Notes: generated from the sequence alone by a model not told the origin. 63,997 nucleotides of DNA, filler included, from Jimgerdemannia flammicorona (GCA_003990765.1; 3 parts of 3 records of this genome joined end to end with filler, not necessarily neighbours in it); one strand, 5' to 3'. Counted from the first letter of the whole stretch, positions 18,170-43,087 are shown. Program-made: numbers and translations.

Positions 18170-19200
18170 ATCATTGTGCTGCGCAGTTCTGTAGTCATTG
18201 TTCTGTAGTCCATCGTTGTGCTGTGGTCCACCATCGCTTTGCGCCCATCGTCGTTTAGCAGGTCATCCTTGTTTTGTGATTAATCGTCGTTCTAGGATTA
18301 ATTGTTATCCTGCGTCATTCTTCAGACCATTCTCATTCAGCGATCTGTAGTCCATCATCATTCTGCAATCCAATTTCAATCTGTAGTCCGTTTCGCTGTG
18401 GTTCACATTCGTTTTTGGTCCATTTTGTGATTAATCGTCGTTCAGAGTTTAATTGTCATTCTGAGTCATTTTCCAGTCCATCGCCGTTTGGCGGGCTGCG
18501 GTCTATCGTTATTCTGGAAGCTCTACAGTTTGTTGTCGTTCGGCCTGCGATCATTGGCGTTTGGCTGTCCATAGTTAATCGTCTTTCTACGTCTAATTAT
18601 TGGTCTGCATTTAAGCAATAATCTGCGTCGTTGATGTCATTCTGCAGTTTATCGCTGTTCAGCAGTTTGCAGTTTACCATAGTTTTGTGCTCCATCGTCA
18701 TTTTATGGTCCGTCGTACTGCGGCCCATAATTTTGTGGTTCACCGTTGCTTTGTGGCTTTTTCGTCTCTCATCAGCAGCAATTAACTATTGTTTTGCCGT
18801 CTATCATTCGGTATCACTTTTCAGTCTATCGTTGCTGTGCGTTCTACAGTTTATTGTTGTTTAATAGTCACTTGTCACTCATTGCTCAACAGTTTACCAT
18901 CTCCGCATCGTCAGTCCATTGTCATTCTTCGGTCCATCATCATTCTGCGGTCCATAATCATTCTGTGGTCCATCATCATTCTGCGGCACATTGCCCATCG
19001 TCGTACTGCTGTCGGTCATCGTACTGTGCCCATCATCATTTCATGGTTCAACGTCAATCACCATTTGTAACTCAATTGGCTGTTAACCATAATTCTGCAT
19101 TGTTTTGTACTCTGTGATCATTGCTTCGTGCGGCAATCTGCAGACCATCTTCGTTTTGTGGTCACCGTCCTGCAGTTGTTCTGCAGTCTGCTTTTTGCAG
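18170..19200 (+). repeat. Degenerate ~18-bp minisatellite (GTCCATCATCATTCTGCG)
   Basis: Best-preserved units at ~18913-18990; diverged units run across the whole interval. Confidence 0.75.
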
Positions 19201-19789
19201 ATTATTGTTTTGGAATTACAAACCTCTAGAAAATTCTAATAAGATTAAGAGAATTTTATAAGATATTGTATGGTTAGATTAGGTAATATTCTCAAGTAGT
19301 ACTATTATCTGCAACTGCAAAATTTGGTTTTGGAAAAATTATCGGAGTGCATTTTATATCTCAGGGTAACTACAGTCAATATGAGTCTGATATATTGACA
19401 AATATAGTACCAACTATGGCTTTTAATTTTCTTTTATCTCAAAAAAACAAAGTGTAAACATAGCTATAATTTCAAATATAATATTAGTCTTAATTTATAA
19501 GAGATGGTTAGGGGAAAATTAGTTACTTTATATATATTAAAAAAAAAAAAAACCCCCCCTATAAATTATATAATAATATAAATTTTCTCTTTTTAATTAG
19601 AAATTTCAAATTTTAGCTCTAAAATATACTAAAACTTATTATATCTAATATTATAAAGTTATATTACAGCTATATAGATATTTTATTATAATCTTAAGAT
19701 AATTTCATAAATCCCTTAGCAATTTTTTAAATAAACAATAGTTTAAAATATAATAAATTGACTCAGCTTTCCTTATGAGTTTCTGTAGC

Positions 19790-20143
19790 TAAATGGTGCA
19801 GTTAAACTAAATAAATATTACTTACAAGAAGTGTTTACAGTGGAATAATGTAGGTAAAGTGTGTGTAAAACATTCTGTGATCAGATAGCGCAAATGAAGT
19901 AAATATTACTTAAATACATGGAATGTTCGCAACAGAGTTCCAACTAACGAAATGTAGGTAAAATCTTGGTGTAAAATAAATATTGCTCAGGTGGCGAAAT
20001 GTAGGTAAATTCGTGAGGTAGAAATATGACGGTCGGGTCAAGGGTCGGGTCAAGGGTCGGGTCAAGGGTCGGAGGTTGGGTCGGGTCGGGTCAACTTTCT
20101 GACCCTGACCGGTAAGACCCGACCCGACCCATTCGGAGCACTA
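19790..20143. mobile_element. Terminus of a hAT-type DNA transposon (TIR and subterminal repeats)
   Basis: Ends ...GACCCGACCCATTCGGAGCACTA (reverse complement TAGTGCTCCGAA, same TIR core as at 22966, 57245 and 59177). Preceded by GGGTC/GGGTCAA repeats and AATGTAGGTAAA repeats. Confidence 0.7.
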
Positions 20144-21545: not shown

Positions 21546-22966
21546 GATGTTGTCTCCAGAATGAGGGCCAGCAAGTTTGACGAAGTCAAGGGTGAGAGAT
21601 TTAAGCTGCCAATCGAGGTCAATCCAATGACCGGTAATGCCCAGAAACGAAATTGCATTAGGGGATGTCCATGTGTCGATCGTAAATGAAATTTTGCCTG
21701 CTGAATTCTGCTTATTGAATGTGAGGTTAAATTGGTGAGCTCTTTTGTATAATTCAGCTTGCAAAGGTCATGGTGCTGCCCTTATTTTACCTGAAGTGTC
21801 TGGCGGAGATTGTCGTACTCCTTCCTATAGGCCTCCAGGACATCTTTGCGAATAGTATCGGTACTTGGCAAATATAAATCATGCTTGAGGAGGCCAAAGA
21901 TGCTATGCAATTGATCACTCTCGATGGTTGTGAATGACTGGTCTGTGCATACAATCCAGCGAACGAGCCAATTTCGAAATTCTGCTGAAGAGTATGGCTA
22001 AAATTTTTGATTAAATGGCGTTGTTGGTACAGAAATGGTCAGGCAATCGGATAAACGTACCCACCACAGCTTGGATGTCAATTTTATTTGTCTCTGTGTT
22101 CTTTTTGATTTTGTCAGAGTACTTGTCTTTTATGTGTCGATTCATGTTCGAAGTTGTACCCCCAAGCATTTTGAACTTCTGGCTGGTGCAGTTCATGGGG
22201 GTGGATGAAACAATATCATGTGTGTATCAAACAATATCATGTGTGTATCAAACAAAGTGTCAATAGGTGCGTCTTAATTTTTTACCTGCAATAATTACAA
22301 ACAACATCATCTCCTATCTTAGTACAATGTTGCCAGATTTCGGAGCGAGGATTGCGTGGAAGGTGTGGAACTATCAGGGATGTTTGACTTGAAGCATCAT
22401 CGGTACTGTGAACTGTTGAAGACTGATCTGTCGACATGTGTGTTTGCGTGTTTGCGTGTGCATGTGTATGCGTGTGTATGTATGCGTGTATGTGTGTTGT
22501 GTTGTGGACGCGTCCGGCATATAAGTTATGTGGAGGATTTGGATTGGAGGATTCGGTTGAAGGATTCAGATGAGGATTCGGATTGAAGGATTCGAATTGG
22601 AGGATTCAAATTGGAGGATTCGAATTGGAGGATTCGAATTGAGTGATTCGGATTGAGTGATTCGGATTGAGTGATTCGGATTGAGTGATTCGGATTGAGT
22701 GGTTCGGATTGAGTGGTTCGGATGGGTGATTCGGATGGGTGATTCGGATGGGGCGATTCGGATGGGGCAATTCGGATTGAGTGATTCGGATTGAGTGATT
22801 CGGATTGGGGTGGTTCGGATGGGTGATTCAGATGGGGCGATTCGGATGGGGCGATTCGGATTAAATCCGAGTTGATCCGGATGGCTTCGGATTTGAGATT
22901 CGAATCAAACCGTCATGTGACGAATCGAATCCGGATTTGATTCGAATTGACTCGTTCAGAGCACTA
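21546..22966 (-). mobile_element. hAT (Ac/ZBED-like) DNA transposon, 5' part with intron-containing transposase, truncated by the gap
   Basis: Fragments: BED-finger-like GTTSNMNRHI; WLVRWIVCTDQSFTTIES...LPSTDTIRKD; and ISFTIDTWTSPNAISFLGITGHWID..LDF..HSGDNI (first catalytic D). TIR ...CGTTCAGAGCACTA ends at 22966. Confidence 0.88.
22540..22865 (+). repeat. hAT subterminal tandem array (GATTCGGATTGAGT, 13-14 bp)
   Basis: About 20 tandem copies directly inside the TIR. Confidence 0.9.
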
Positions 22967-23211
22967 TTGACAAAGATGAAGCAGAAGACAATGATCCCTC
23001 TGACACCAACATGACCTTGAGCCAAGGATTCCTGCCAACCTTGATCACTCTACCAACCTTGCTGATGAACTTGCAATAGTTCATAACCACCTATGAAACT
23101 TATTGGAACAATGACCACTGGTACAAATACTAACTCATATTCACCCCTGATTACTTTAACTATAATGAAGAGACTAGAGAACACAACCTGTACCTTTAGA
23201 CAATCCTTAAG
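22967..23211 (+). repeat. Older host LTR of the chromovirus family, fragment 1 (continues at 34212-34869 and 41223-41603)
   Basis: Matches the LTR interior at ~23983-24216 and is interrupted at the TTAAG/TTGAG TSD. Confidence 0.85.
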
Positions 23212-23468
23212 TGTAAGTGCACAACCTCCAAGCCACCAAAATCACATGTCACCCTCTGAACAAGTCACTGAAATCACATGCGACCTCCAAACAAATCTGG
23301 AAATCACCTGCTTGATCATGAAGCTGAGTCAACATGAAGTCATGGAATACAAGATTTATACAAACAGAATCTTACCAATCAGAACCAAATGCATATATAC
23401 CAAGCACTGAGACACATCGAAACAGAGAACCAAAACAAACAACAACTACAACTTCCAAACATACAAAC

Positions 23469-24090
23469 ATGACCACTGAGATCTATAACTGTATCTGTAC
23501 TGACATTTGGAATACCATTGTCAACCGAGCCACACCTCCTCTGCCCCTCATGAATATCCATAGCCTAGTACCCCTCTACTTCATGGAAGCCCGATGGAAT
23601 ACTCTGAACATGCTGAACAAGGCCTACCAGATTAGACAAATCTCAAGTTACTACCAGATTGGCCACCTCCTAGAAGATATGGTCAAACACCACCATGATA
23701 CAGATATTACCCAGATGTCTCAATACCAGAAACTCATTGCCTACAAATACCAAGAACTCTTCTATGAATATAATACTATTATTCTCTGCCTCCAAGTTAC
23801 TATAGCCAAAATGATTACTATCCTGTCCTATGGCCAAATTGATGACATGATATAAGAACTCAACCACAAGTATCTTGAGTATATCGAAACTACAGACAGA
23901 ATCTTTCCCCACCCCAATGATCATATCCTGCAAATGCCCCAAGTCGGATATGCCATGAAGGACATCTATGATATAATCCACTTTGACAAAGATGAAGCAG
24001 AAGACAATGATCCCTCTGATGCCAACATGACCTCAAGCCAAGGATCTCTACCAACTCTGATCACACTGCCAACCTTGTCAATGAACTTAT
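23469..24090 (+). pseudogene. LTR(U3)-encoded accessory ORF, 5' LTR copy (3' end approximate)
   Basis: MTTEIYNCICTDIWNTIVNRATPPLPLMNIHSL...YYQIGHLL... The stop at 23853 (TAA) is CAA in the 3' LTR. Confidence 0.65.
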
Positions 24091-24506
24091 AATAGTTCAT
24101 AACCACCTATGAGACCTATTGGGACAATGATCACTGGCACGAATACCAACCTGCATTCACTCCTGATTACTGAAGAAACTGAAGAATACAATCTATATGT
24201 CCAGACAACTCTTGAGATTGAACCAACCACTCCACCACCTGAGTATGAGTGATACGAACCACAGCTGCCAGCTTACTACAACCCCACAACTTATAGTGCT
24301 GTAACCTGTAGAAGATATATAGATAGTGAAACCAATGAAAGCAAAGATGATGCACTACTCCTTCACCCACCAACATCTTATCCAGCATATGAGACAGATG
24401 ATGCCATCCTGTGGGACAGTGATGAAGTTCCAATGTATTACTACCATAGCCAACAAGGAGAAGTAATCCGCAAACCACTCTTCCTAGATAATTACTTCAT
24501 CAGAGA

Positions 24507-24751
24507 TGATGTCATCAATGATGATGTCATTGAAGACTACCCAGACAGTGCCTAAACCATAAATAGCTTAGCAGTTATAGTATAGTTAGATTAGTCTTAA
24601 TCAACATGACTGTGAACTGACTCAGCAGTCAATCAATCTCTTGATATGTCAGATTACACTTATACTATATGACTGCATTCTGACTCAGCAAAGTACTTAA
24701 TACTATATCCATATCTAGTATAGTCCAGATAGCCCCTCACTAGTATAAATA
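24507..24751 (+). promoter_or_regulatory. Putative LTR promoter: CRE-like TGATGTCA x2, AP-1/Gcn4-type TGACTCAGCA x2, TATAAATA
   Basis: TGATGTCA at 24507 and 24522, TGACTCAGCA at 24618 and 24681, TATAAATA at 24744. Largely conserved in the other LTR copies. Confidence 0.55.
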
Positions 24752-25237
24752 CCTCCTCCCTCTGACCTCAGAATCTCAGACTTGAACAATCTGAACACAA
24801 CTCCTGAGCACTTCCCCATGATATCCCTTCACACAACCAACTCCTAGTATAGCAAAATCATAAATAGCAAATAAAGCCTATTTAATAACCCACAAACCAC
24901 TCTTAAGTAAATCCACTCCCCATTAGGTCCCACTCCTAACCCCATCACGAAATTTCCTAATTGGGTATTGTCTGCAGCGATACGCCAATTCAACTAAGCT
25001 GGTCTTAGTTTCTTAAACTTCCTGAAATATGGAAAATCCTGAACATCCAGAACTAGTCTAAAAAAGGACTTTGGTTGAGACGTCAACCTGATCTTGAAAT
25101 CAATAAGCATAGAGGACATACTCCATACAAAATTGATCTTGACCATAAGAAAATGGTCTTTCAGAACATCCAGAACTTCCAGAAAACCCTTCCAGAACTA
25201 TGTAATGGTTACCCTAAAAAGCAACTCTCTTACAACT

Positions 25238-25249
25238 TGGAAGCAGTGG
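25238..25249 (+). other. Primer-binding site (tRNA-iMet-like)
   Basis: TGGAAGCAGTGG 3 nt after the LTR end. The sister element has TAGTAGTAGTGG, giving a consensus close to TGGTAGCAGTGG. Confidence 0.6.
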
Positions 25250-26592
25250 TTTACAATCCAAATCTGCTTCAAGACGCTTCCTCACCCCACTACAAACCCC
25301 TCCATGAATTCCTACAAGTTGGTATAAAGCCCAATCTCTGAACTGGAATTTATCCTGAACCATCTGACAATCTGGAGAGAATTGAACCTGATGTACAAGG
25401 ACAATTTGACCTCCATACCTGCAACAAGTGGGACAAACTTCATTTGAAAAAAGAAATACTCCAGTTAAATCAGCAAATAGGTGAAACCCTATTCACCAAA
25501 CTCCTTGCTCTACACCCAGCAAGTCAAGATGAAGAAGGTCTTATTGAAGCCTTCTTTACTCTTCTCAACAAGAGTTTTGTTAGCTCTACAAATCTGAGCA
25601 ACCTAGGACAACCAGCAGCAGTCTTTCTAGCCTTAGTCCCTCACAAAGCCCAAGCCTCTGTAGCCAAGTAGCTCAACTCTACCAACTTTCACTATACCAG
25701 GACCAAGACTACACTATACTACCAATTCCAGAACAGCAAGGCCTGCTATATCCTTAAAGAAGAAGCAAGAGAAACTCTTCATCAACTATCTGACCCTGAA
25801 CCTGAAGCAGGCCCTGCTATAGCCCTACCTGAATCTGAAACCAATATCGAACCTGAACTTGACTTTGAATTAAGTCCATCTAAAATCAGATATATAACTG
25901 TTTTTGTCTACTTTGATACCAAGCAAACCCAATTACACAGAGACCAAACCAAAGAAGAGGAGGAGTATCTTGGTGAATTCGATCCCAGATATACTACTAA
26001 AGGAGAAGTATCTCCATCAGGACAGAATACACCTACACAGCAACAAATAGTTATCTATCAAGCCCTCACTCTAGACTCACAACTACTATTCCAGCAACTT
26101 ACATAGATCTAAAGAACTCCATCACACTCTGCACCAGTACCTCAAGTAGTACCAGTAACACCACTACCAGCAGTCCAACTACCTCCAGTAAACAATATGG
26201 CAAACCAACAGATTCTAGACCTCACAGCCCAGATAGCCATAATGGCAGCAACCATTACTGCCTTAGCTGAACAGACCCAATCTACCAAAAATCTGAGCCT
26301 ACTTACCTTCAATGGTATTGCACAAGAAGTCCAAAGCTTTATTAGTATAGTTGATACCAACTTTGAAGCCAATCAATGGACCAATGAGCGAGTTGCTGAC
26401 TGCATTCTAACAAACAATCAAGACCACACTCTGGAACAACTCTTTGCTACCACTATAGCCTATGTCCACTAAGTTGTTACATTCTTCTGAGGACCTGCCA
26501 AAGAATGGTGGTGAACCCTTCCTGAAAAACCCCTTACATGAGATATCCAACTGCAGTAGTTGCTCAGAATGCAGCAAACAATACCCCAGGAT

Positions 26593-26981
26593 GTACAGGG
26601 GAGGTGGGGGGACCTGAGGGATCGATTGATAGGAGGGGTAGGGGAAGAGTGGATTACACTAGACTGGGCATTGGCTATTTGGGTTGGGCTGGCCGGCCAC
26701 TGGCTATTTGTATTTGAGGAGGAGAGGTGACAGAGCTTGGGGAGCCGGTTAGCAAGGTGGCAATTCCTTATGGAGGATACCTTGACAGGCTGGTGGCTTG
26801 GTTGGGGGCTGCAGGGGGGTCGGAGGTGCCGCTTGGTGGTGAAAATCTGTGGTCAGAGTGGTGGGAGAGTGGTCTTTTTACGTGAAGAGGTGGGGTGGGG
26901 CCCCTCAATGGGGATCAGCTAGTGGGTGGTGATATTGTATACTTATTCATAGACTGGTAATAAAGACGGAGTCCTAGGGAC

Positions 26982-27014
<33 letters not shown>
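26593..27014 (+). mobile_element. 5'-truncated LINE/SINE insertion inside gag
   Basis: Perfect 17-bp TSD AAACAATACCCCAGGAT (26576-26592 / 27015-27031), AATAAA at 26959, poly(A) from 26985. G-rich and CpGs intact. Confidence 0.92.
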
Positions 27015-27018
<4 letters not shown>

Positions 27019-27705
27019 AATACCCCAGGATACAGAGCCCATCCTGCAGCCCCTAGACTCAAATAACTCATGATTGCTCAATACTGCAGCAAAACCATGA
27101 TTGCTGAATCTCAAGTAAAACTCCGCAACCTCAAATTTGATGTACATAGCAAAGAAGAATTCGAAACCTTCTGTACAAAACTCGAGTCACTCCTGAATAC
27201 TATTGGCCTAGGATATATTGCCAATGATGAAACATGAAATGGTACAAGAGCAGACCATTTATTTAATGCACTGCCTGAATGGCTTACTAGAAAAATCTGA
27301 GAACAAGATTACCCAGTTGGTTGTGATCACTAACAATGGTGCCTCGCAAGAATCAAGACTATGGTTAAGTGAATCCTAACAGCTGGACCAATTCTGCCCT
27401 GAAGGCAATTCAACAATAAGGAAAAGACTTGGACCAAGAAAGAAGAACCCAAGCATGAAGCATCTCGAGCTCCCTCCACATCCACCTCTTGGATACCCAG
27501 AAATCATGAACCTACCCAACCGAGTACCTTCAAGAAACTCACTGAAGGTGAAAGGAATGAACTTCGAAGAAGCGGAGTATGCTTCTATTGCCAAAAGACA
27601 GGACATATGGCCAATGCCTGCCCTAACTGAAAACCCCGAACAGCAATACAAGCAACTGTTACCACTCTGCACCACCTCAACAACCTGACCACCAGAATAC
27701 TAGAC

Positions 27706-28110
27706 CTTGTCAAGTTAAGATAAACTGCTAAGGCCCCAACCAAAGGAAGTCAAAAAGCAGCTGGATATGACCTGTATGCAGCCGAAGAAGCTATAGTTTC
27801 CAACCGAGAAGTCAAACAAATCTATACAGGAATTAGTATCCAAATCCCTGAAGGACATGTTGGAAGAATATACTATTGCAGCAGTCTAGCATTGAAAGGA
27901 CTCACAGTAGAAGGAGGAGTCATTGATGAGGACTACACAGGTGAAGTTATTGTCCTCATCTGAAACCACAGTTGGACACCCTTCAAGATCTCTATTGGTT
28001 TCTGCATCGCTCAGATCCTATTCGAAAAAATTGAGTCAACTCTGATAGTCAAGAAAGTCTCTGAACTACTACCTACTATCTGAGGATCCAAAGGATTTGG
28101 CTCATCAAAC
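27706..28110 (+). pseudogene. dut: dUTPase domain of the retrotransposon polyprotein
   Basis: All five trimeric dUTPase motifs: AAGYDLYA, GRIYY(C)SSLA, GGVIDEDYTGE, (C)IAQI, (*)GSKGFGSS. Expected Arg codons appear as TGC/TGA. Confidence 0.93.
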
Positions 28111-31100
28111 AAGGCCCCAGTTCAACCTACTATGAACAAAGAAGAGCAATTCTATAAGAAAATCAAAGATAGATATGTACCAAGTAGCTGATATCTCCAT
28201 GGCATTGGAATGTACTCTTCCTGAATAATTGATGATTGCTTCTCTTGTGTCAATGAACTGGCTCAAAGAAGAACCAACAGAAGGAAAGCTCCTACAACCA
28301 AAATTACCACCATTGGATCAGACAAACTGCTTATACTTAAAGCTTTTATCAATTGAGCACCTGTCAAGATTATGATAGACAGTGGTGCCTCAGGCAACTT
28401 CATCAGTGAAGAGACAGCCAACAGACTTAAGGTCTTCACCTCTCTGGTACAACAAACTCAAGCAGTTGCCACAGCTGATGGAACCTCACATGTCATTAGC
28501 AAGGAAATCCACAATCTACCCTTCCAAATTGGTAACTATCGAGTACATGTTACCCTCCAAATTGTACCACTCCCTGACAATGAAATCATCCTTAGAACTC
28601 CATGGTTGAAACAAGAGAACCCCATGATTGATTGGGTAAACCATTCTCTGACCATCAAGAAAGGATGCCACAACTTCAAACTGCAAGGCGAAAAGAACCC
28701 ACTCAGTTCTAGTGACCCTGGACCAAAGATTACCTACATCAACAAGCTACAACTCAAGAAATTGGCCAAGAAATGCCCTCTCTTCACTATCTCCATCTGC
28801 CCATCTAAAGGAGAACTTGAGAACTCTGAAGAAGATTTCTTCAAAGTTGACAGCTGTGTCAGACCACTACTCTAGAAATTCTGAGACATATTCCCAAAGA
28901 AACTTCCAAAAGGCCTACCTCCTAAATGAGCAGTAGACCATGCTATTAAGACCATCCCAGATGCCAAACCAGTCTTCAAGTCAATCTACCACATGTCTCT
29001 GAGAGAAATTGATGCACTCAAGAAGGAAATCGATGAACTCCTAGAATAAGGATTCATTAGACCGAGTGTATCACCCTATTGTGCACCGGTCCTCTTTGTT
29101 GTCAAAAAAGGAGGAGATCTGCAAATGTGCATTGATTACCATGACCTCAATGAACAGACCATTAAGAACTGTTGCCCATTACCCAGAATCAATGAAATAT
29201 TCAATAGACTCACTAACCCACAATTCATGAGCTCTTTTGATCTGCGAAATGGCTATTGGCAAATTGCTATGAAAGAAGAAGATATCTACAAGACAGCTTT
29301 CCAAACTCGCTATGGACACTTCGAGTTCCTGGTTATACCCTTTGACTTAACTAATGCTCCTGCAACCTTCCAGACCCTGATGAATACTATTCTACACCCA
29401 TATCTAGACAAATTCATTATTATCTACATTGATAACATCCTAGTCTTCAGCAAAACCCTGGAGGAACATCTTGAACACCTTGAACTAGTACTACTGAAAC
29501 TCTGAGAAAACCGACTCTTTGCAAAACTCAGCAAGTGCGAATTTCTCCTGAAAGAAATTTAATTCCTTAGACACATTATCATGCCAAATAGAATTAAAGT
29601 GGACCCCAGCAAAATCTCTACAATCAAAGATTGGCCCAGACCCAAGAAGCTGAAAGACCTCCAGTCATTCCTGGGATTAGCAAACTATTACAGGCAATTT
29701 GTTGCCAACTTTGCTAAAATTGCTACTGCCCTCACCCAAATAACCAAGCACAGCAAGAAACAAGAACAACCCTGGACCACTAAACAAGAGAAAGACTTCA
29801 ACAATCTTGTAAATTGGAGACCTGAGTAAGATACCGCCTTTTAAGCACTGAAAGATGCCCTGATAACCACTCCAGTACTTCAAGTAGCAAATCCTGCTCT
29901 ACCATATAAAGTCACTACTGATGCCTCTGACCTAGCTCTTAGAGCAGTGCTTATGCAAGAAGGACACCCTGTGGCCTATCACTCCTGCAAGTTCAATGAT
30001 GCTGAAATTAACTATGCAATCCATGAGAAGGAAATGCTAGCCATTGTAGACACTCTGATCAAATGGTGACCATATCTAGAAGGAGCACACTTTACTGTAT
30101 TGACTGACCACAAATCATTAGTCAATATCAAGACCCAGGCTACCCTTTCTTGAAAGCAAGCCAGATGGATGAAAGTCCTCACCAACTTTGACTATGAAAT
30201 CCAGTATCACCCTAGTAAGGAGAATATTGTTACCAATGTAATTTCCAGACCACTCATTGAAGAAGTTATCCAAACTCTCACCTTGGTTACCAACACTATC
30301 ATGGAGCATATTATTGCAGTATGTGCTGATGACAAGGAAGCTCAAGCACTCTAAGAAATCCTGAGCAGTGATGATGCTGACAAACATATCCAGTACCATT
30401 AATACCAACTGAAGGATAATGCTATCTACTATAAGGACAGATTGTATGTTCCAAACAACCAAGACCTCCAAAGGAGTATCTTATTTGAATGTCATGATGC
30501 CCCAACAGCTGGACATTTAGGATTTGACAAATGCTATAAAGTTATCTCCCAAAACTTCTATTGGCCCTGTATGGCAGATTAGCTCAAAACCTACATCACT
30601 TCCTATGATGCCTGCCAATGGAATAAGTCCTCAACACTAGCAAAACCTGGCCTACTCAACCCTATTCCAGTACCATCTGCTAATTGGGAACAAATCTCTA
30701 TGGACTTTATTGTATAACTATCTCGAACCAAGAATGGGAAAGATGCAATTATTGTCTTCATGGACTATCTCAGCAAACAAGCCTACTTTGTACCAACCAC
30801 CACCACTGCAACAGTACCAGATATAGCCATACTCTTGTTTGACAATATCTTCTGCTATCATGGTCTTCCTAAGATCATTATTAGTGACTGAGATCTGAAA
30901 TTTACCAGCCATTTTTGAAAAGCCCTCCATACATACCTTGGAACAAAACTTGTACTATCTACAGCCTTTCACCCTGAAACTGATGATCAAACTGAAAGAA
31001 TGAACTGAACTTTGGAACAAATACTAAGGAACTATGTTTCCTATAGACAAGATAATTAGTATGAATACCTCACTGCAGTCAAGTTTGCCTATAACAACAG

Positions 31101-31599
31101 TAAGCAAGCCTCTCTGGAAATGACCCCATTCTTCACCAACACTGGACAAAACCCAAACACCCCTTTGACACTTATCCGAACCACTGAAGAACCCTCTACA
31201 GTTGAAGCTGTTGAAGAATTCTTACTCCGAATGTGCAATCTAAGCCAGATTACCATTGAGAATTTATCACGAGCTCAAGAACAACAGTTACAGTATGTTA
31301 ACCAACACTGCCAAGAAGAAACCTTTGATATTGGAGAAAAGGTTCTACTGGACATCAGAGGATACTGAGTTGACAACCTCAAGCACAGACCATCTACAAA
31401 GCTAAATAGCAAGTTCATTGGACCATTTGAAGTTATTGCACAAGTCTCTCTAACCTCCTAAAAATTGGTACTACTAGACACTATTAAGATTCACCCAGTC
31501 TTCAATGTCCAACATCTTAAGTGATATAGTGAGAATGATGATGAACTATTCTCTAACTGAATCATGAAACCACCTGCACCTGTTATTATTAATGATTAA

Positions 31600-31767
31600 G
31601 AAGAGTATGAAGTTGAACAAATCCTCAACAAACATGGCTACAAGAACCACCCTGAGTACCTTGTTAAATGGAAAGGTTATCCAATCCATAATACAACCTG
31701 GGAACCCAAGACCAATCTCCAGAATGCTACCAACTTATTTCAGAAATATGATTCCTTGAACAACTAA
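31600..31767 (+). pseudogene. Integrase C-terminal chromodomain
   Basis: EEYEVEQILNKHGYKNHPEYLVKWKGYPIHNTTWEPKTNLQNA. Confidence 0.9.
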
Positions 31768-32174
31768 AACCAAATACTCTGCACCTATCTATACATACTA
31801 TGTATTATCCTCCCAAATACTATAATTATAAAAAATCAAGAACTCAGCAAAACAAGACAAGAATACCAACCCTCTGGAAAAAATAGCAAAACTGAAAGCC
31901 AGCCTATTCTCCCTGTATCACTGGTGGGAAACAAAACATAGACATTTAAGAAGATTCTTTAGAGAAAATTCTCCAGCAGTGAATGATGTCAGAATCACTT
32001 CTGGCATATGGCATTGAACACACAACCCTTTAATGTGTGAATCCAATGTGTTAGGCAACTGTACTACAAGCATGCCACTTTCTGAAAAAATGGACTTTAC
32101 TAGACTTTTGACCTCTCAAATGGTGTAACAACACTAGAACAAAATTAGAAGGCCCGACAAGGACATCAAAAGCT

Positions 32175-32187
32175 AAGAAGGGGAGAG
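32175..32187 (+). other. Polypurine tract
   Basis: AAGAAGGGGAGAG just upstream of the 3' LTR TG. Confidence 0.9.
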
Positions 32188-32188
32188 T

Positions 32189-34211
32189 TGTAAGTGTACA
32201 ATCTCCAAGCCACCGAAATCACACATCACCCTCTGAACAAGCCACTGAAATCACACATGACCTCCAAACAAATCTAGAAATCACCTGCTTGATCATGAAG
32301 CTGAGTCAACATGAAGTCACAGAACACAAGATTCACACAAATGGAATCTTACCAATTAGGACCAAATGTATATATACTGAGCACTGAGACACATCGAAAC
32401 AGAGAACCAAAACAAACAACAACCATAACTTCCAAACATATAAACATGACCACTGAGATCTACAACTGTATCTGCACTGACATTTGAAATGCTATTGTCA
32501 ACTGAGCCACACCCCCTCTACTCCTCATAAATATCCATAGCCTAGCATCCCTCTACTTCATGGAAGCCCAATGGAATACTCTGAACATACTGAACGAGGC
32601 CCACCAGATCAGACAAATCTCAAGCTACTATCAGATTGGCCACCTCCTGGAAGACATGGTCGAATACCACAATAATACAGACATTACCCAGATGTCTCAA
32701 CACCAGAAACTCATTGCCTGCAAACACCAAGAACTCTTCTACAAATATAGCACTGTTATTCCCCACCTTCGAGTTACTATAGCCGAAATGGTTACTACCC
32801 TGTTCTATGGCCAAATTGATGACATGATACAAGAACTCAACTACAAGTACCTCGAGTATATCAAAACCACAGACAGAACCTTCCCCCACCCCAATGATCA
32901 TATCCTGCAAATGCCCCAAGTCAGATATGCTATGAAGGATGTCTATAATATAATCCACTTTGACAAAGATGAAGCAGAAGACAATGATCTCTCTGATACT
33001 GACATGACCTCAAGCCAAGGATCCCTGCCAACCCTCAACCTTGCTGATGAACTTACAGTAGTTCATAACTGCCTATGAGACCTATTGGGACAATGACTAC
33101 TGGTATAAATACTAACTCGCATTCACCTCCAATTACTTCAATTACAATGAAGAAACCAGAGAACATAATCTATATGTCCAGACAACCCTCGAGATCAAGC
33201 CAACCACTCCACCACCTGAGTACGAGCGACATAAACCACAGCTGCCAGCTTACTACAAACCCATGACTCATAGTACTGTAACCTATAGAAGATATGCAGA
33301 TAGTGAAACTGATGAAAGCGAAGATAATGTACTGCTTCTTTGCCCACCAATACCTTATCTAGTATATGAGACAGATGATGCCATCCTGTAGGATAGTGAT
33401 GAAGTCCTAATGTATTACTACCATAGTCAACAAGGAGAAGTAATCTGCAAACCACTCTTCCTGGATAACTACTTCATCAGAGATGATATCATCGATGGTG
33501 ATGTCATCAAAGACTACCCAGATAGTACCTAAACCATAAATAGCTTAGCAGTCATAGTATAGTTAGATTAGTCTTGTACAATATAACTGTGAACCAACTC
33601 AGCAATCAATTGATCTCTTGACATGTCAGATCACACTTGTACTATGTGACTGCATTCTGACTCAGTAAAGCACTTAGTGCTATATCCATATCTAGTATAG
33701 TCCAGATAGCCCCTCACTAGTATAAATACCCCCTCCCCCAGACCTCAGAATCTCAGACTTGAACAATCTGAATACAACTCCTGAGTATTTCCCAATAATA
33801 TTCCTTCACACAACCAACTCCTAGTATAGCAAAATTATGAATAGTGAATAAAATCTATTTAATAACCCACAAACCACTCTTAAGTAAATCTGCTCCCCAT
33901 TAGGTCCCACTCCTAACTCCATCACGAAATTTCCTAATTGGGTATTGTCTATAGTGATATGCCAATTCAACTAAGCTAGTCTTAGTTTCTTGAACTTTCT
34001 AAAATATGGAAAATCCTGAACATCCAGAACTAGTCTGAAAAAGGACTTTGGTTGAGACGTCAATCTGATCTTGAAATCAATAAGTATAGAGGACGTACTC
34101 CATATAAAATTAATCTTGACCATAAGAAAATGGTCTTCCAGAACATCCAGAACTTCCAGAAAATCCTTCCAGAACTACATAATGGTTACTCTAAAAAGCA
34201 ACCCTCTTATA
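32189..34211 (+). repeat. 3' LTR (2023 bp)
   Basis: TGTAAGTGTAC...CCTCTTATA followed by TSD TTGAG. Confidence 0.95.
32446..33078 (+). pseudogene. LTR(U3)-encoded accessory ORF, 3' LTR copy (~210 codons)
   Basis: Two early TGA stops correspond to TGG and CGA in the 5' LTR. The rest is the 172-aa ORF 32560-33078. Confidence 0.68.
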
Positions 34212-34869
34212 TTGAGATTGAACTAACAACTCCACTATCAAAAAAAACTTGCCCATATAGGGCTATCCACTCAGGAAGATAGTGTCATCCTTGTGTAGGG
34301 GCCATGCTAATCTTCTCTGTATCATTCCAATTTTTTCAAGTATCAGCAGTCCCGAAGGACTTGACAACAACTCCACTATCTGAGTATGAGCAATATGAAC
34401 CACAGCTGCTAGCTTACTACAATCCAGCACATAACTTATAGAAGGTATATAGATAGCAAATCCAATAAAAGCAAAGATAATGCACCCCTCCTTCACTCAC
34501 CAATACCTTACCCAGCATATGAGACAGATAATGCTATCTTGTGGAATGGTGATAAAGTTCTAATATATTATTATCTTAGCAAATAAGAAGAATTAATCTG
34601 TGAATAACTCTTCCTAGATAACTACTTTATCAGAGATAATACTATTGATAGTAATGTCATTGAAGACTACTCAGACAGTATCTAAATCTATAGATAGCTT
34701 AGCAGTCATAGTATAGTTAGATTAGCCTTATATAATATAACTATAAACTAACTCAGCAGTCAGATGATCCCTTGATATATCAGATTACACTTATACTATG
34801 TGACTGTATTCTGACTCAGCAAAGTACTAAGTGCTATATCTATATTCAGCATAGCCCAGATAGCCTCTC
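34212..34869 (+). repeat. Older host LTR, fragment 2
   Basis: Continues fragment 1 colinearly with LTR positions ~24212-24738, with a short extra segment near 34240-34360. Confidence 0.83.
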
Positions 34870-37800
34870 TGTAAGAGGGTTGCTTTTTAGGGTAACCATT
34901 ACATAGTTCTGAAAGGGTTTTCTAGAAGTTCTAGATATTCTAAAAGACTATTTTCTTATAGTCAAGATCAATTTTGTATAGAGTACATTCACTATGCTTA
35001 TTAATTTCAAGTTTGGGTTAATGTCTCAACCAAAGTCCTTTTTTGGACTAGTTCTGGATGTTCAGGATTTTCCATATTTCAGGAAGTTCAAGAAACTAAG
35101 ACCAGCTTAGTTGAATTGGTGTATCACTATAGACAATATCCAATTAGGAAATTTCATGATAGGGTTAGGAGTGGGACCTAATAGGGAGTGGATTTACTTA
35201 AGAGTGGTTTGTGGATTATTAAATAGGTTTATTCGCTATTCATGATATTGCTATACTAGGAGTAGTTGTGTAAAGAGATATTGTGGAGAAGTACTCAGGA
35301 GTTGTGTTTGGATTGTTCAAGTCTGGATTCTGAGGTCTGGAGGAGGGGGTATTTATACTAGTGAGGGGCTATCTGGACTATGCTAAATATGGATATAGCA
35401 CTAAGTGTCTTGCTGAGTCAGAATGCAGTCACGTAGTACAAGAGTGATCTGACATGTCAAGAGATTATCTGACTGCTGAGTTAATTCACAGTCACATCGT
35501 ACAAGGCTAATCTAACTATACTATGACTGCTAAGCTATTTATAGGTTTAGACACTGTCTGGGTAGTCTTCAATGACATCACTATTGATGACATCATTGCT
35601 GGCAAAGTCTGAGCAGTTTTCTGACTTCTGACATCATCAGTTTCAAGGTACCGTCACTTCTATCTCTTGTAAGATTAAGGCTGTTCTTGGTGGCAGTGGT
35701 TGTACAAGGATAATAGGTCTTGGTTCTCTTTTTTTTTGGTCTGCTGGCGCATTTGCAAGGACTGGCCATTCTTGTCTAGGGCAAGGGCTCTCAATGTCAC
35801 AGCTGGGGGTTCAAACCTCTTAGAAATAATATTTTCTGTAATCTGAGGCAATTTCTAGTAGCAATATCTATCATGTGGATGGCTTAAGATTGGTTTCGAC
35901 ATTGTTAGCTTTCTTGAGTTCAGATGAAGCATCTGTCACTCTCTAACAGAGGTGATACAGATAGAGTGAACAGAGTTGTTCAAATGCATTTTGCTTTTGC
36001 TAAGTAATGAGGTCTTGTATAGTCATAGTATATCTTGGTCTTGAGTTGATAAGTACAGTTTGTGAATCTTTTGAAAGATGAGATAGGGTTCTTCTTGTCT
36101 CAATTTGAGTTTGGTACTTTTGGTTTCCTTTTGTAATAGTACAGTATACCAAACTAGTTATAGTAGTTCAGAGTCAGTCTTATGGTTGTAGTACTTCTTC
36201 TAGTATTCTTATATCTTGGCAGTGGGTTCTCATACTTGCTGGCATATTTTGTGTAACCAGATGATCTCTTGTTTTGTAGTCTCACATGTGGTTTCCAAAT
36301 TAGTTCTGAGAATGCCATGCAATTTTGGTGGCTTAGAGGTTGTGCACTTACAACTCTCCCCTTCTTAGCTTTCAACATCCTCATCAGGGCCTTCTAATTT
36401 ATTCTGGTGTTGTTGTACCATTTGGATGGTTCTTGTGGCTATGTTTGTTGAGGATTTGTTCAACTTTGTATTCTTTTTGGTCATTAATAATGACAGATAC
36501 AGGTGGTTCTGTGGTTCAGTTCAGAAATGTGTCTCGGGCTTTCTGGAGTAGTGGTCTGACACAGCTGTCAACTTTGGAAAAGTCTTCTTCAGAGTTCTTG
36601 GGTTCTTCTTTGGATGGACAGATGGAGATAGCAAAGAGAGGGCATTTCTTAGTCAATTTCTTGAGTTGTAGTTTATTGATGTGAGTGATCTTTGATCTAG
36701 AGTTACTAGAACTGAGTGGGTCCTTTTTATCTTGCAGTTTGAAGTTGTGGTGTCCTTTCTTGATGGTCAGAGAATGGTTTATCCAATCGATCATAGGGTT
36801 CTCTTATTTCAGCCATGGGGTTCCAAGAATTATTTCATTGTCAGGAAGTGGTACAATTTGGAGGGTAACATATACTTGATAGTCACCAATTTGGAAGGGT
36901 AGATTGCAGACTTCCTTGCTGATGAAATGTGAGGTTCCATCAGCTGTGGCAACTGCTTGGGTTTGTTGTACCAGAGAGGTGAAGACCTTAAGTCTGTTGG
37001 CTATCTCTTCATTGATGAAGTTGCCTGAGGCACCACTGTCTATCATAATCTTGACAGGTGCTCAGTTGACAAAAGCTTTAAGTGTAAGCAGTTTGACTGA
37101 CCCAATGGTGGTGATTTTGGTTATAGGAGCTTTCCTTCTGTTGGTTCTTCTTTAAGCCAGTTCATTGATACAAGAGAAGCAATCATCAATCATTCAGGAA
37201 AAGTACATTCCAATGCCATGGGGGCATCAGTCACTTGGTATATATCCATCTTTGATTTTCTTATAGAATTGCTCTTCTTTATTCATAGTAGGTTGGACTG
37301 GGGCCTTGTTCGATGAGCCAAATTCTTTGGATCCTTGGGTGGTAGGTAGTAGTTCAGGGACTTCCTTGACTGTTAGAGTTGACTTGATTTTTTCAGATCT
37401 GGGTAATGCAGAAACCTATAGAGATCTTGAAGGGTGTCCAACTATGGTTTTGGATGAGGATAATAATTTCGCCTATATAATCCTCATCAATGACTCCTCC
37501 TTCTACTGAGAGTCCCTTCAATACTAGACTGTTGCAACAGCATATTCTTCCAATATATCCTTTGGGAATTTAGATACTGATTCCTGTATAGACTTGCTTG
37601 ACTTCTTGGTTGGAAACTATAGCTTCTTTGGCTACATACAGGTTATATCTAGCTGCTTTTTGACTTCCTTTGGTTGGGGTCTTAGCAGTTTGTCTTAACT
37701 TGACAAAGTCCAGTGTTCTGGTGGTCAGGTTATTGAGGTGGTGCAGAGTGGTAACAGTTGCTTGTATTGCTGTTTGGGGTTTTCAGTTAGGGCAGGCACT

Positions 37801-40800
37801 GGCCATATATCCTGTCTTTCAGTAATAGAAGCATGCTCTACTTCTTCGAAGTTCATTTCTTTCACCTTTGGTGAGATTCTTGAAGGTACTCAGCTGGGTG
37901 GGTTTATGATTTCTGGGTATCCATGAGGTGGATGTGGAGGGAGCTTGAGATGCCTCATGCTTGGGCTCTTCTTTCTTAGTCCAAGTCTTTTCCTTGTTGT
38001 TGAATTGTCTTCAGAGCAGAATTGGTCCAGCTGTTAGAATTCACTTGACTATAGTCTTGATTCTTACTAGGTACCATTGTTGGTGATCACAACTGACTGA
38101 GCAGCCTTGTTCATGGATTTTTCTTATAAGCCATTCAGGCAGTGTTCAAATAAATGGTCTGCTCTTATACTATTTCATACTTCATCATTGGTGATATATC
38201 CTAGACCAACAGTATTCAGGAGTGACTCAAGTTTTGTACAGAAGGTTTCAAATTCTTCTTTGCCATATACATCAAATTTGAGGTTGTGGAGTTTTACTCG
38301 AGATTCAGCAATTATGGTTTTGCTGCAGTATTGAGCAGTCATAAGTTGTTTGAGTCCAGGGGCTGCAGGATGGGCTCTATATCCTGTGGCATTGTTTGCT
38401 GCATTCTGTGCAACTACTGTAGGTCAGGTGTCCTATGTGAGGGGCTTTTCAGGAAGGGTTCACCACTATTCTTCAGCAGGACCTCAGAAGAATATAATAA
38501 CTCAGCAGACATAGGCTGTAGTGGTAGCAAAGAGTTGTTCCAGAGTGTGGTCTTGATTGTTTGTCAGAATGCAGTCAGCAACTCACTCATTGGTCTATTG
38601 ATTGGCTTCAAAGTTGGTGTCAACTACACTAATGAAGCTTTGGACTTCTTGTGCAGTATCATTGAAGGTAGGTAGGCTCAGATTTTTGGTAGATCAGATC
38701 TGTTCGGCTAGAGCAGTAATGGTTGCTGCCATTATTGCTACTTGGGCTATGAGGTCTAGAATCTGTTGGTTTGTCATATTGTTTACTGGAGGCAGTTGGA
38801 CTGCTGGTAGTGGTGTTACTGGTACTACTTGAGGTACTGGTGCAGAGTGCGATGGGGTTCTTTGAGTCTGTGTAAGTTGCTGGAGTAGTAGTTGTGAGTC
38901 TGGAGTAAGGGTTTGATAGATAGCTGTTTGTTGCTGTGTAGGTATATTCTGTCCTGATGGAGGTGCTTCTCCTTTGCTGGTATATCTGGGATTGAATTCA
39001 CTGAGATACTCCTTCTCTTCTTCAGTTTGGTCCCCATGTAATTGAGTTTGCTCAGTGTCAAAGTAAACAGAATCAGTTGTATATCTGATTTTGGATGGAC
39101 TTAATTCAAAGTCCAGTTCAGGTTCAGTGTTGGTTTCAGATTTAGATAGGGCTATAGCAGGGTCTGCTTCAGGTTCAGGATCAGGTAGTTGATGAAGGGT
39201 TTCTCTTGCTTCTTCTTTAAGAATATGATAGGCCTTGCTGTTCTGGAATTAGTAATATAATGCGGTCTTGGTCCTGGTGTAGTGAAAGTCAGTAGAGTTG
39301 AGCCACTTGGCTATAGAGGCTTGGACTTCATAAGGAACTAAGGCTAGAAAGACTGCTGCTAGTTGTGCTAGATTGCTCGGATTTGTAGAGCTGACAAAAC
39401 TCTTATTGAGAAGAGTAAAGAAGACTTCTATAAGATCTTCTTTATCTTAACTTGCTGGGTGTAGAGCAAGGAGTTTGGTGAATAGGGTTTCACCTATTTG
39501 CTGATTTAACTGGAGTATTTCTTTCTTCGAATAAAGTTTGTCCCACTTGTTGCAGGTGTGGAGGTCAAATTGTCCTTATACGTCAGGTTCAATTCTCTCC
39601 AGATTGTCAGATAGTTTAGGATAAATTCTAGTTCAGAGGTTGGGCTTTATTCCAACTTGTAGAAATTTGCAGAGGGGTTTATAGTAGGGTGAGGAAGTGT
39701 CTTGAAGTGGAATTAGATTGTGAACCACTACTACTAAGTTGTAAGAGGGTTGCTTTTTAGGGTAATCATTATGTAGTTCTGGAAGGGTTTTCTGGAAGTT
39801 CTGGATATTCTGGAAGACTGTTTTCTTATAGTCAAGATCAATTTCATATAGAGTACATCCTCTATGCTTATTGATTTCAAGTTTGGATTGATGTCTCAAC
39901 CAAAGTCCTTTTTTGGACTAGTTCTGGATATTCAGGATTTTCTGTATTTTAGGAAGTTCAAGAAACTAAGACCAGCTTAGTTGAATTGGCATATTGCTGC
40001 AGACAATACTCAATTAGGAAATTTTGTGATGGGGTTAGGAGTGGAACCTAATAGGGAGCAAATTTACTTAAGAGTAGTTTGTGGGTTATTAAATAGGTTT
40101 ATTTGCTATTCATGATATTACTATACTAGGAGTAGTTGTGTAAAGAGATATTGTGGGGAAGTGCTCAGGAGTTGTATTCGGATTGTTCAAGTCTGAGATT
40201 CTGAGATCTGGGGGAGAGAGTATTTATACTAGTGAGGGGCTATCTGGACTATACTAAATATAGATATAGCACTAAGTACCTTGCTGAGTCAGAATGCAGT
40301 CATGTAGTACAAGAGTGATCTGATATGTCAAGAGATCATCTGACTGCTGAGTCAGTTTACAGTCATGTCGTACAAGACTAATCTAACTATACTATGACTG
40401 CTAAGCTATTTATAGGTTTAGACACTGTCTGGGTAGTCTTCAATGACATCACTATGATGACATCATTGCTGGCAAAGTCTGAGCAGTTTTCTGACTTCTG
40501 ACATCATTAGTTTCAAGGTATTATCATTTCTATCTCTTACAAGATTAAGGCTGTTCTTGGTGGTAGTGGTTGCACAAGGATAACAGATCTTAGTTCTCTT
40601 TTTTTTTGATCTGCTGGTGCATTTGCAAGGACTGGCCATTCTCATCTAGGACAAGGGCTCCCAATGTCATGGCTGGGAGTTCGAATCTCTCAGAAATGAT
40701 ATTTTCTATAATCCGAGGCAATTTCTATTAGTAATATCTGTCACGTGGATGGCTTGAGATTGGTTTCGATGTTGTTGGCTTTTTTGAGTTCAGATGAAGC

Positions 40801-41222
40801 ATCCATCACTCTTCAATGGAAGTAATACAGATAGAGTAAACAGAGTTGTTCAAATGTATTTTGCTTTTGCTAAATAATGAGGTCTTATATAGTCACAGTG
40901 TATCTTGGTCTTGAGTTAATAAGTGTAGTTCATGAATCTTTGGATAGATGAGATAGGATTCTTTTTGTCTCAATTTGAGTTTGGTACTTTTGGTTTCCTT
41001 TTGTAATAGTATAGTATACTAAACTAGTTATAGTAGTTCTGAGTCAGTCTTATAGTTATAGTACTTCTTCTAGTATTCTTGTATCTTAGCAGTGGATTCT
41101 CATGCTTGCTGGCATATTTTGTGTAACCAGATGATCTCTTGTTTTGTAGTCTCACATATAGTTTCCAAATTAGTTCTGAGGATGCCATATGATTTTAGTG
41201 GCTTAGAGGTTGTGTACTTACA
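34870..41222 (-). mobile_element. Internally deleted (non-autonomous) sister chromovirus: extended Gag, dUTPase and PR retained, RT-RH-IN lost
   Basis: 1483-bp LTRs at 39740-41222 and 34870-36352, TSD CTCTC/CCCTC, PPT at ~36354-36366, PR ORF 36804-37046. Jumps from the start of RT to a chromodomain remnant near 36515. Confidence 0.93.
37308..37707 (-). pseudogene. dut: dUTPase domain, second copy
   Basis: Reverse-complement homologue of 27706-28110 (GGVIDEDY; TQGSKEFGSS). Confidence 0.85.
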
Positions 41223-41603
41223 CCCTCACTAGTATAAATACCTCCTTCTCCAGATCTCAGAATCTCAGACTTAAATAATCTGAACACAACTTCTGAGTAT
41301 ATTCCTTTATACAACTATTCCTAATATAGCAATATTATGAATAGCAAATAAATCTATTTAATAACCCACAAACTACTTTTAAGTAAATCTACTCCTATTA
41401 GATCTCACTCCTAACCATGTTATGAAATTTCCTAATTGGATATTGTCTGCAGTGATACACCAATCCAACTAAGCTGGTCTTAGTTTCTTGAACTTCCAAA
41501 AATATGGAAAATCTTGAACATCTAGAACTAGTCCAAAAAAGGACTTTGGTTGAGATGTCAACCAAATCTAGAAATCAATAAGCATAGAGGATATACTCTA
41601 TAC
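41223..41603 (+). repeat. Older host LTR, fragment 3
   Basis: Resumes at CCCTCACTAGTATAAATA and is colinear with the LTR to ~25128, then is interrupted by the SINE-like element. Confidence 0.85.
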
Positions 41604-42987
41604 AGCTCCTTTCTCTGCTACCTTACTGGTTACAAGGTTTGGTAGACAACCTTCCAAGTTCCCTTTCTCCTATTATACCCCCTCTACCTCAGGTTGGTTT
41701 GCTGTGCCTATATAAGTATGGTGGGAGGAGAATAATGATAATGAGTTGCCCCTTTATCAGTATCAGATCAGTGTCTTCTCCACTTTTTCATGGTTTCTGG
41801 TATCTTTGGCTACATCTGGAGTACATCTGTTTTGGTGCAGCACCTTCTTCCTTTTGTCATCGTCCATAAGGTGCTGTCTTGATATATCTCAGGCTACATA
41901 GGAAGTTGGCTGACCTTGGGCATCAAGTGCTCAGTATAGGTTACCTATAGGTCCTCGGTGTCTGTGGTGGGGCCCTCTGGCTTTGGCAAGCTTCTCGATG
42001 AGCACAGTTCTGGTGTAGGTGACTGTTTTTTGGGTATTGTTGAGATGAGAGGGGAGATGGCTGTCACAGATAGGAGGATGGGCAATTATGGTGAACCAGT
42101 GGGGTACCAGACTGGAGGCAGTCATCAAGACTGGGGCAGATAATATTTTGGTGGGGCCTTTTGATTGGCTGGTGGGGGGTGGGGTAGTGCAGGAGCCAGT
42201 ATCCTGGTTGTACTCAACTGGAACCAGAAGCTGACATAGTAATGTGATCAAGGCCCACAGGCTTGGGGAGTGGGGTCTTCCTCATTTGACAGTACCCAAC
42301 TGGAACCAGGAGCTGATATGGCAACATGATCAAGGCCCACAGGCTCAAGGAGTGGAAGTGGGATCTCTTCAGGCCCTAGCCTATATATAAGTCCTTTGAG
42401 GAAGGTGTTGTATATCCTTTTAACTGTTTTGCACCTATATTTAGAGGCAAGATTTTAAAAGTTTATAACTTTTAAAATCATAATAGCTTTTAAAAAAAAA
42501 TTTACCAATAATTTTTTATATAATAATTCTACCTTTGGTAAAAATTTTACAAAAAAAAAAAATTTTGTTTTTAAATAAATTGAGATATATTTTTAACAGA
42601 AAAACAATGTTTCAAAAAATCATTTTTTTCAAACTTTAATTTGTCTGCTAAGTAATTTTAAAAGATGATCTTATCTACAGACAAAGGGATAAGTCCTTTA
42701 CTTATCTGCTTTGAATCTACTTTGCTCTATATTGGTTGATTGGGGGGTTTTTTCTTTGCCTCGGGCTTTCTTTTGGGGTTTGGGGGGCTATTCTTTATTC
42801 AGTTCTAGTGCTGCTAGATCTGATGCATAGGTGTGCTCTCGCATGTAAATGATGATCTAGCTCTAGTGAGCAGACAAGTCTAGTCTATGTCATGGGGGTC
42901 AACATAGCCAGTGTTTGACAGGCATAGCTGGAGTGGTGGGACTGCTGAACAATTTAGTAACCTAGATTAATGGGGGAATATTATTCA
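41604..42987 (+). mobile_element. SINE-like non-LTR element, copy 2, with a ~275-bp AT-rich insertion at ~42415-42689
   Basis: Colinear with 1962-3070 and begins at the same 5' sequence AG(C)TCCTTTCTCTGCTACC. The insert is bounded by TCCTTT...AAAGGGA. Confidence 0.8.
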
Positions 42988-43087
42988 NNNNNNNNNNNNN
43001 NNNNNNNNNNNNNNNNNNNNNNNNNNNNNNNTTAATTAATTAANNNNNNNNNNNNNNNNNNNNNNNNNNNNNNNNNNNNNNNNNNNN
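42988..43087. other. Assembly gap with artificial TTAATTAATTAA linker
   Basis: 44 N + TTAATTAATTAA + 44 N. Confidence 0.98.

Follow-up and report, generated by a model that had tools for sequence, protein, structure and literature searches.

LTR retrotransposons are commonly taught as gag-pol elements whose long terminal repeats (LTRs) are purely regulatory, and a handful of complex retroviruses stand out by whole genes in the U3 part of these repeats. Mouse mammary tumor virus (MMTV) encodes the superantigen Sag in an open reading frame (ORF) in the U3 of its betaretroviral LTR, and lentiviral nef as well as foamy-virus bel/bet overlap the U3 of the 3' LTR, starting in the internal region and running into U3. 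Here, we describe an ORF in the U3 of a Ty3/Gypsy chromovirus, element A, that resides in a 63,997-nt stretch of the Jimgerdemannia flammicorona genome (GCA_003990765.1; three record parts joined with filler). All positions refer to this whole stretch, which we call the window. The ORF has coding character, is present in diverged copies of the LTR, and is without known relatives beyond two sequences from short contigs, and we consider it probable that it is a real, element-borne protein-coding gene of ca. 364 codons.

Like this ORF, MMTV sag is a whole frame of ca. 1 kb that lies in U3, 5' of the LTR promoter, is present in both LTRs, and accounts for an unusually long LTR. Its carrier is a retrovirus, however, whereas the U3 ORF is carried by an env-less chromovirus, and the two have no Pfam relation. 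The likeness to nef and bel/bet is that an accessory gene overlaps the cis-regulation of U3, which in our case concerns DDVI..DDVI codons lying over two TGATGTCA motifs, but the ORF described here differs from them in that its ATG is found 257 bp inside the LTR and its stop before the TATA box, again without homology. No sequence or fold relation of the ORF to Sag, Nef, or Bel was detected with Pfam (E ≤ 1), in a PDB profile search, or with Foldseek on a low-confidence model.

Additional ORFs (aORFs) of LTR retrotransposons are generally known from two places, either ahead of gag, after the 5' LTR, or behind pol, before the 3' LTR, in sense or antisense orientation. The U3 ORF resembles them as a lineage-specific extra frame in an otherwise standard gag-pol element, but it is located within the terminal repeat and, hence, outside the interval between primer binding site (PBS) and polypurine tract. 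Such aORFs are treated in the plant review PMC7264820 (under the heading "aORFs-3R") and extra frames in bdelloid LTR elements in PMC5408684; the available portions of both sources make no mention of an ORF inside an LTR, and the phrases "in the LTR" and "within the LTR" are absent from that of PMC7264820. Chromoviruses bearing a dUTPase are reported from basidiomycetes (Postia PosPlaTy3 and elements of Phanerochaete) and from Tuber (Tmt1) in PMC2864245, and these are chromodomain Gypsy elements with a dUTPase domain like element A. No LTR-borne frame is mentioned for them in the available portion of that paper, which is separate from the original description of Tmt1. More broadly, the literature on ORFs in LTRs deals almost entirely with MMTV sag, and no fungal or plant LTR retrotransposon was among the matches listed. 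The layout of a whole ORF in U3 is otherwise known mainly from complex retroviruses.

The repeat layout of the window was established by self-comparison and by a five-way alignment of LTR copies, and these uncover three nested copies (A, B, and C) of one LTR-retrotransposon family. Element A carries the ORF in both of its LTRs:

23212..25234, + strand: 5' LTR of element A, 2023 bp, TGTAAG...CTTACA, from direct repeat and alignment
32189..34211, + strand: 3' LTR of element A, 2023 bp, 88.5% identical to the 5' LTR
23469..24555, + strand: U3 ORF, 5' LTR copy, with ATG at 23469 and natural stop TAA at 24553-24555
32446..33532, + strand: U3 ORF, 3' LTR copy, with ATG at 32446 and natural stop TAA at 33530-33532

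The frame is wholly contained in U3, ending 190 bp before the TATA box TATAAATA (24744). It lies upstream of the AP-1/TATA block, as the initial annotation had stated, with TGACTCA at 24618 and 24682 and the TATA box all located 3' of the ORF. Because the gene is part of the LTR, every insertion holds two copies of it, and one still remains in a solo LTR.

All three copies in the window are dead through transition decay and small deletions. The 5' LTR copy has stops at 23853, 24092, and 24095, has lost 11 bp near 24171 (frame resuming at 24172), and contains a TGA at 24250, while the 3' LTR copy shows two TGA codons near its start and an 11-bp deletion near 33020 (frame resuming at 33029), followed by TAG, TAA, and TAG. 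We indeed see the same frame from ATG 23469 and ATG 32446 in the two LTRs and confirm the earlier observation that internal stops of one copy are sense codons in the other: TAA at 23853 corresponds to CAA in the 3' LTR, and TGA at codons 14 and 20 of the 3' LTR copy correspond to TGG and CGA in the 5' LTR. Most contigs of public sequencing runs also have C rather than T at 23853 (35 in run X1, 2 in X3, 1 in X5, and 6 in X6). The 11-bp deletions are private to each window copy and fall at different places, with that of copy C located farther on, and since each copy has one, no window copy is in a single frame throughout.

Relatives were sought by word-index searches of 5.8 billion clusters and an exhaustive HMMER search of 1.84 billion representatives, which together returned only two, P0006 and P0007. 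The former covers the N-terminal 128 amino acids with an open frame at 76% identity; it begins at the methionine equivalent to position 23469, and an upstream ATG at 23334 was, therefore, dropped as candidate start. P0007 comprises 247 amino acids without stops at 61% identity, and its gaps relative to the window copies are whole codons in the alignment. It also spans the point at which the initial annotation had let the ORF end after ca. 210 codons, and this length does not hold. The TAG after codon ca. 208 is common to both LTRs of element A and to copy C in the alignment, but P0007 reads through it with a Q at this codon (..LQQFITTYETYW..), where loose letters of one contig from run X3 have CAG, and coding-like sequence extends to ca. 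364 codons. The window copies share the C-terminus of P0007 (..DNYFIRDDVIDDDLIAEYPDSI), which in them is followed by TAA at 24553-24555 and 33530-33532. Since P0007 is open past the shared TAG to this common C-terminus, we conclude that the gene has ca. 364 codons.

Conservation is blocky, with 18-19 of 25 positions matching in the last block and 11-16 of 28-30 in earlier ones. By our own estimate, P0007 is separated from the progenitor of element A at ca. 30% of residues, and several stops would be expected in its 247 codons under neutral drift. At the DNA level, soil-metagenome contigs and contigs of two organisms in public runs match the whole LTR at 80-99% likeness, and some of them bridge the U3 head and the ORF or the ORF and the promoter. 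A scan of JGI metagenomes with protein alignment gave 592 pattern stretches of which none was confirmed as a relative, and a degenerate DNA pattern search for the DNA of relatives had no matches.

The reading of this ORF as an accessory gene, already proposed in the initial annotation, stands with regard to its location in U3, its coding marks, its two open-frame relatives, and its distinctness from gag and pol, though not with regard to the length given at the time. We weigh it here together with element B, a sister copy of element A whose LTRs are devoid of the gene:

34870..41222, - strand: element B, sister copy with internal deletion, from self-comparison, alignment, and target-site duplication (TSD)
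34870-36352 and 39740-41222, - strand: LTRs of element B, 1483 bp each, 90.7% identical to each other, ORF-less

Element B is flanked by the TSD CTCTC/CCCTC, and its internal DNA is ca. 89% identical to that of element A. From the ORF-bearing part of the LTR, the B LTRs retain only the first ca. 48 bp and the last ca. 17 ORF codons; in between, ca. 706 bp of unrelated non-coding sequence replace ca. 1244 bp. The retained codons suggest that LTRs with the ORF preceded those without it. We note that this ORF-less LTR variant is also present elsewhere, in loose contig ends of public runs X1 and X3.

Several points weigh against a gene of the element. Element B integrated though its LTRs lack the gene, which makes the gene dispensable in cis, and the shared TAG may mean that it was already truncated in this lineage while the family was still transposing. 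Transversions between copies A and C (n = 11, all 3' of the shared TAG) are distributed 5/3/3 over the codon positions without third-position excess, a comparison of little power for which pol serves as control with 11 of 19 at third positions. Both P0006 and P0007 come from contigs of ca. 1 kb, too short to show whether an LTR surrounds them, and P0007 is subject to ascertainment bias as it is known only as an open frame. In two public runs that we guess to be RNA, the ORF has a contig depth of 0-21 compared to 1000-6000 over R-U5, with contig depth being a poor measure. Finally, the structural models of the product (see below) are poor, so that "helical domain" is a statement on predicted secondary structure only.

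Some of the same observations would also fit a passenger, which we consider rather unlikely. In this case, an intronless gene of the host or of foreign origin, or a retrocopy, would have been caught into U3 by template switching and would have no role for the element, so that it could be lost or broken freely. With its own ATG, its stop, and an upstream TATA-like box, the ORF does look like a self-contained gene, but in codon use and strand composition it follows gag and pol of the element rather than the host genes in the window: An excess of A and a shortage of G on the sense strand are common to the ORF and pol but not to the two host genes. The family does include an ORF-less U3 variant that integrated, yet the B-type LTRs hold the last ORF codons, so that the gene is older than this variant. 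Similarly, transposition continued after the truncation common to both A copies and C, and the transversions show no excess at third positions, but a relative of only 61% identity is still open over 247 codons. The small number of relatives in the very large collections that were searched, both from short contigs, likewise speaks against a captured gene.

It is very improbable, and largely refuted, that there is no gene at all and that the open frame arose from the A-rich, G-poor skew of the element's sense strand. Skewed composition does lower the number of stops in some frames, with only 7 stops in 234 codons in the antisense frame opposite the ORF, and neither a family nor a fold nor expression supports the ORF product. 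We compared stops to composition-matched shuffles (n = 2000) and codon use to a log-likelihood model trained on the element's pol, scored in frame and out of frame. In the first half of the ORF, we count 3 in-frame stops in 234 codons for the 5' LTR copy and 2 in 195 for the 3' LTR copy, with 10-20 in the other sense frames, while shuffles average 12.3 and 9.7 and reach values as low as observed in just 4/2000 and 5/2000 cases; for the second half, this is the case for 27/2000 and 54/2000. The codon log-likelihood is +0.18 to +0.23 per codon in the ORF frame and -0.02 to -0.22 in the other two, and this frame-specific signal equals that of held-out gag (+0.17), whereas four non-coding controls (B-type U3, R-U5, pol-LTR spacer, and U3 head) are near zero at -0.08 to +0.08. 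The two relatives, moreover, align as proteins with 61-76% identity, whole-codon gaps, and open frames. The ORF is, thus, not a chance open frame, and with 4-5 stops in ca. 364 codons compared to 36 in the 1560 codons of pol, it is not more broken than genes that the element needed. We also rejected the ORF as a fragment of gag or pol, which the initial annotation had named as a refuting outcome: When the window is searched with the ORF proteins by tblastn, only the LTR copies match, with everything else at E > 1, and Pfam finds no match.

The carrier of this gene, element A, is a complete though decayed chromovirus:

23212..34211, + strand: element A, chromovirus (Ty3/Gypsy), from LTR pair, TSD, and domain order
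25235..25256, + strand: PBS-like region directly 3' of the 5' LTR (ACTTGGAAGCAGTGG...), from the junction sequence
25237..31785, + strand: gag-pol frame
32169..32188, + strand: polypurine tract AAAGCTAAGAAGGGGAGAGT abutting the 3' LTR, with the same sequence in element B

The class assignment rests on TG..CA LTRs with a TSD of 5 bp (TTAAG/TTGAG), the order protease, reverse transcriptase, RNase H, and integrase, a C-terminal chromodomain, and the presence of both PBS and polypurine tract. A less decayed form of the PBS is found in a loose end of public run X6. The single pol frame (27037-31716) has accumulated its stops without any frameshift. Pfam domains on element A follow the order zf-CCHC, dUTPase, aspartic protease, RVT_1, RNase H, integrase zinc-binding and core domains, Tf2-type SH3, and chromodomain, with RVP_2 (residues 428-543), RVT_1 (690-844), RT_RNaseH (953-1051), Integrase_H2C2 (1141-1198), and rve (1218-1313) located on one frame. 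The chromodomain is PF00385 Chromo (residues 1524-1560, E = 1e-9, 38.6 bits at a cut-off of 25.1), and the dUTPase domain (E = 4e-31 in Pfam) follows the zinc knuckle of gag and precedes the protease. The matches to Chromo, RVT_1, rve, and others bear out the earlier assignment of the element to the chromoviruses. Between pol and the 3' LTR, a stretch of 420 bp without coding signal, we found no env-like frame. The gag region additionally contains a 416-bp G-rich insertion (26599-27014) with a 33-nt poly(A) at its end that is not present in element B and is probably a retroposed sequence or short interspersed nuclear element.

A third LTR copy, C, is older and was the insertion site of both element A and element B, so that it is now split into three pieces:

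22962..23211, + strand: left piece of C, ORF codons ca. 172-255, with element A inserted into C
34212..34869, + strand: middle piece of C, rest of the ORF with its stop at 34683-34685 and a U6 copy inside, ending at the insertion of element B
41223..41604, + strand: right piece of C, R-U5 part

The sequence of C resumes exactly across each insertion, and this continuity fixes the ends of element A independently of the repeat itself, which rules out that the ORF is an internal gene beside a shorter LTR. The TSD, the TG..CA ends, the PBS, the polypurine tract, and the continuity of the nested insertions also agree with the initial annotation that the 2-kb repeats are true LTRs. A mis-delimited repeat, in which the ORF would be a 3' internal gene beside a short LTR that was doubled by a tandem or recombinant arrangement, could appeal to the last ca. 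727 bp being all that A and B repeats have in common in self-comparison but is extremely improbable and refuted by the junctions, given that the TGTAAG start directly follows the polypurine tract in A and B and the CTTACA end directly precedes the PBS, that TTAAG/TTGAG flank 23212 and 34211 with C resuming exactly across, and that the two 1483-bp LTRs of element B start with the same 48 bp.

The middle piece of C contains a full-length U6 snRNA copy on the - strand (34253-34356; Rfam RF00026, 74.1 bits, model positions 1-105) that splits the ORF of this LTR. A 14-bp direct repeat ACAACTCCACTATC on either side (flanks 34225-34385) and a run of T at the 3' end suggest that this U6 was retroposed. 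On its 5' side, C is cut off by a tandem array with a 14-bp unit in 12 register copies, together with unrelated DNA (22531-22960), and this may represent the subterminal region of a DNA transposon.

The predicted product of the U3 ORF is an orphan. Pfam assigns none of the four ORF translations to a family (E ≤ 1), the best match of a profile search in PDB has E = 1.3, and Foldseek with the AlphaFold2 model of P0006 (low confidence) returned no matches at E ≤ 0.001. The ESM Atlas had no usable match for P0007 and only matches below the recognition bar for P0006. AlphaFold2 models have a confidence (predicted local distance difference test, pLDDT) of 39.7 for residues 1-234 and of 50.1 for P0006, and the Atlas model of P0007 reaches 0.39. 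The two AlphaFold2 models agree on four long helices over residues ca. 3-120, with more helices up to residue ca. 178. The C-terminal two thirds, as seen in P0007, have an isoelectric point of 4.05 with 46 acidic compared to 10 basic residues, 23 Tyr, and 24 Pro. The helical look and acidic tail of the initial annotation are, hence, recovered as a helical N-terminal half in low-confidence models (pLDDT 40-50) and an acidic tail by composition, and the search for fold or profile relatives in PDB and with Foldseek leaves the orphan status unchanged.

The final block of the protein (..PLF.DNYFIRDDVI.DDVIEDYPDS) has a net charge of -9 over 30 residues with aromatics and aliphatics interspersed. 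Acidic blocks with aromatics of this kind resemble acidic activation or docking motifs, and we propose that the block may serve as such a motif. We note that the DDVI..DDVI codons (24506-24535) are also the place where homology to the ORF-less B-type LTR begins. Together with their overlap with the TGATGTCA motifs, this means that part of the block's conservation may be cis-regulatory.

The regions on either side of the ORF harbor candidate signals for expression:

23212..23468, + strand: U3 head, 5' of the ORF, with three AAATCAC(A/C)TG repeats, TGAGTCA at 23325, and TATATA at 23394; no coding signal
24556..24775, + strand: U3 tail, with TGACTCA at 24618 and 24682 and TATAAATA at 24744, the predicted promoter of the genomic RNA

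The TATATA at 23394 precedes the ATG of the ORF by ca. 70 bp, and the U3 head is a candidate for the ORF's own promoter judged from these motifs. Between 24776 and 24844, contig depth in the two putative RNA runs rises from ≤20 to thousands, a weak hint that would agree with transcription starting directly 3' of the TATA box in the U3 tail. The first bases of the LTR, TGTAAGT (23212-23218), resemble a 5' splice site, and ACTGAG followed by CAG is found at ca. 23404-23423, 45 bp before the ATG; an intron of ca. 211 nt 5' of the ORF is, from its sequence, conceivable.

How the gene would be expressed can only be proposed tentatively. It might be transcribed from its own promoter in the 257-bp U3 head, with transcripts ending at the poly(A) signal AATAAA in R ca. 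1.4 kb on, in which case each LTR, including solo LTRs, could express the protein. Alternatively, and with a similarly modest chance of being correct, the ORF could be the 3'-terminal reading frame of LTR-driven RNA and be expressed from the 3' LTR copy in a retrovirus-like manner, spliced or not. The product would act in trans and outside the replication machinery as an adaptor- or activator-like factor in transcription or in the escape from silencing, though we consider a specific function as activator or anti-silencing adaptor doubtful. Similarly doubtful is a complete plan like that of complex retroviruses, with a trans-acting U3 gene under its own promoter, LTRs and solo LTRs as autonomous expression units of a factor that raises transcription of the family or dampens silencing by the host, and B-type elements as free-riders.

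If a genuine U3 gene is confirmed, accessory genes would be acquired in LTRs of env-less intracellular elements, too, and some very long LTRs would be long because they code for protein. Solo LTRs could then be protein-coding loci that are hidden from annotation by repeat masking. A simple test system is at hand, too, as the family comprises LTRs with and without the ORF next to each other.

The nested elements (23212-41222) show an extreme decay spectrum. Differences between paired LTRs are dominated by transitions, with 210 transitions to 6 transversions in element A and 131 to 5 in element B. The ratio of observed to expected CpG is 0.16 in the element compared to 0.93 in flanking DNA, and that of TpG is 1.59. 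Many C/T differences are found in CpA context, and in either orientation of the copies, the family has much A and little G on its sense strand. Beyond the nested elements, the window contains a host protein-kinase exon on the - strand (15549-16406; Pkinase, E = 4e-28) and a compact host flavin amine-oxidase gene on the + strand (53854-55722; Amino_oxidase, E = 1e-11 and 1.5e-27 on two ORFs). The region at 43000-49000 is very strongly skewed between the strands (GC skew of -0.3 to -0.5) and does not match chromovirus pol, and the one ORF that was tried had no Pfam match. AT-rich blocks with a GC content of 20-29% are located at 56000-61000, 3001-4000, 19001-20000, and 49001-50000, and the regions between them have ca. 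40-50% GC.

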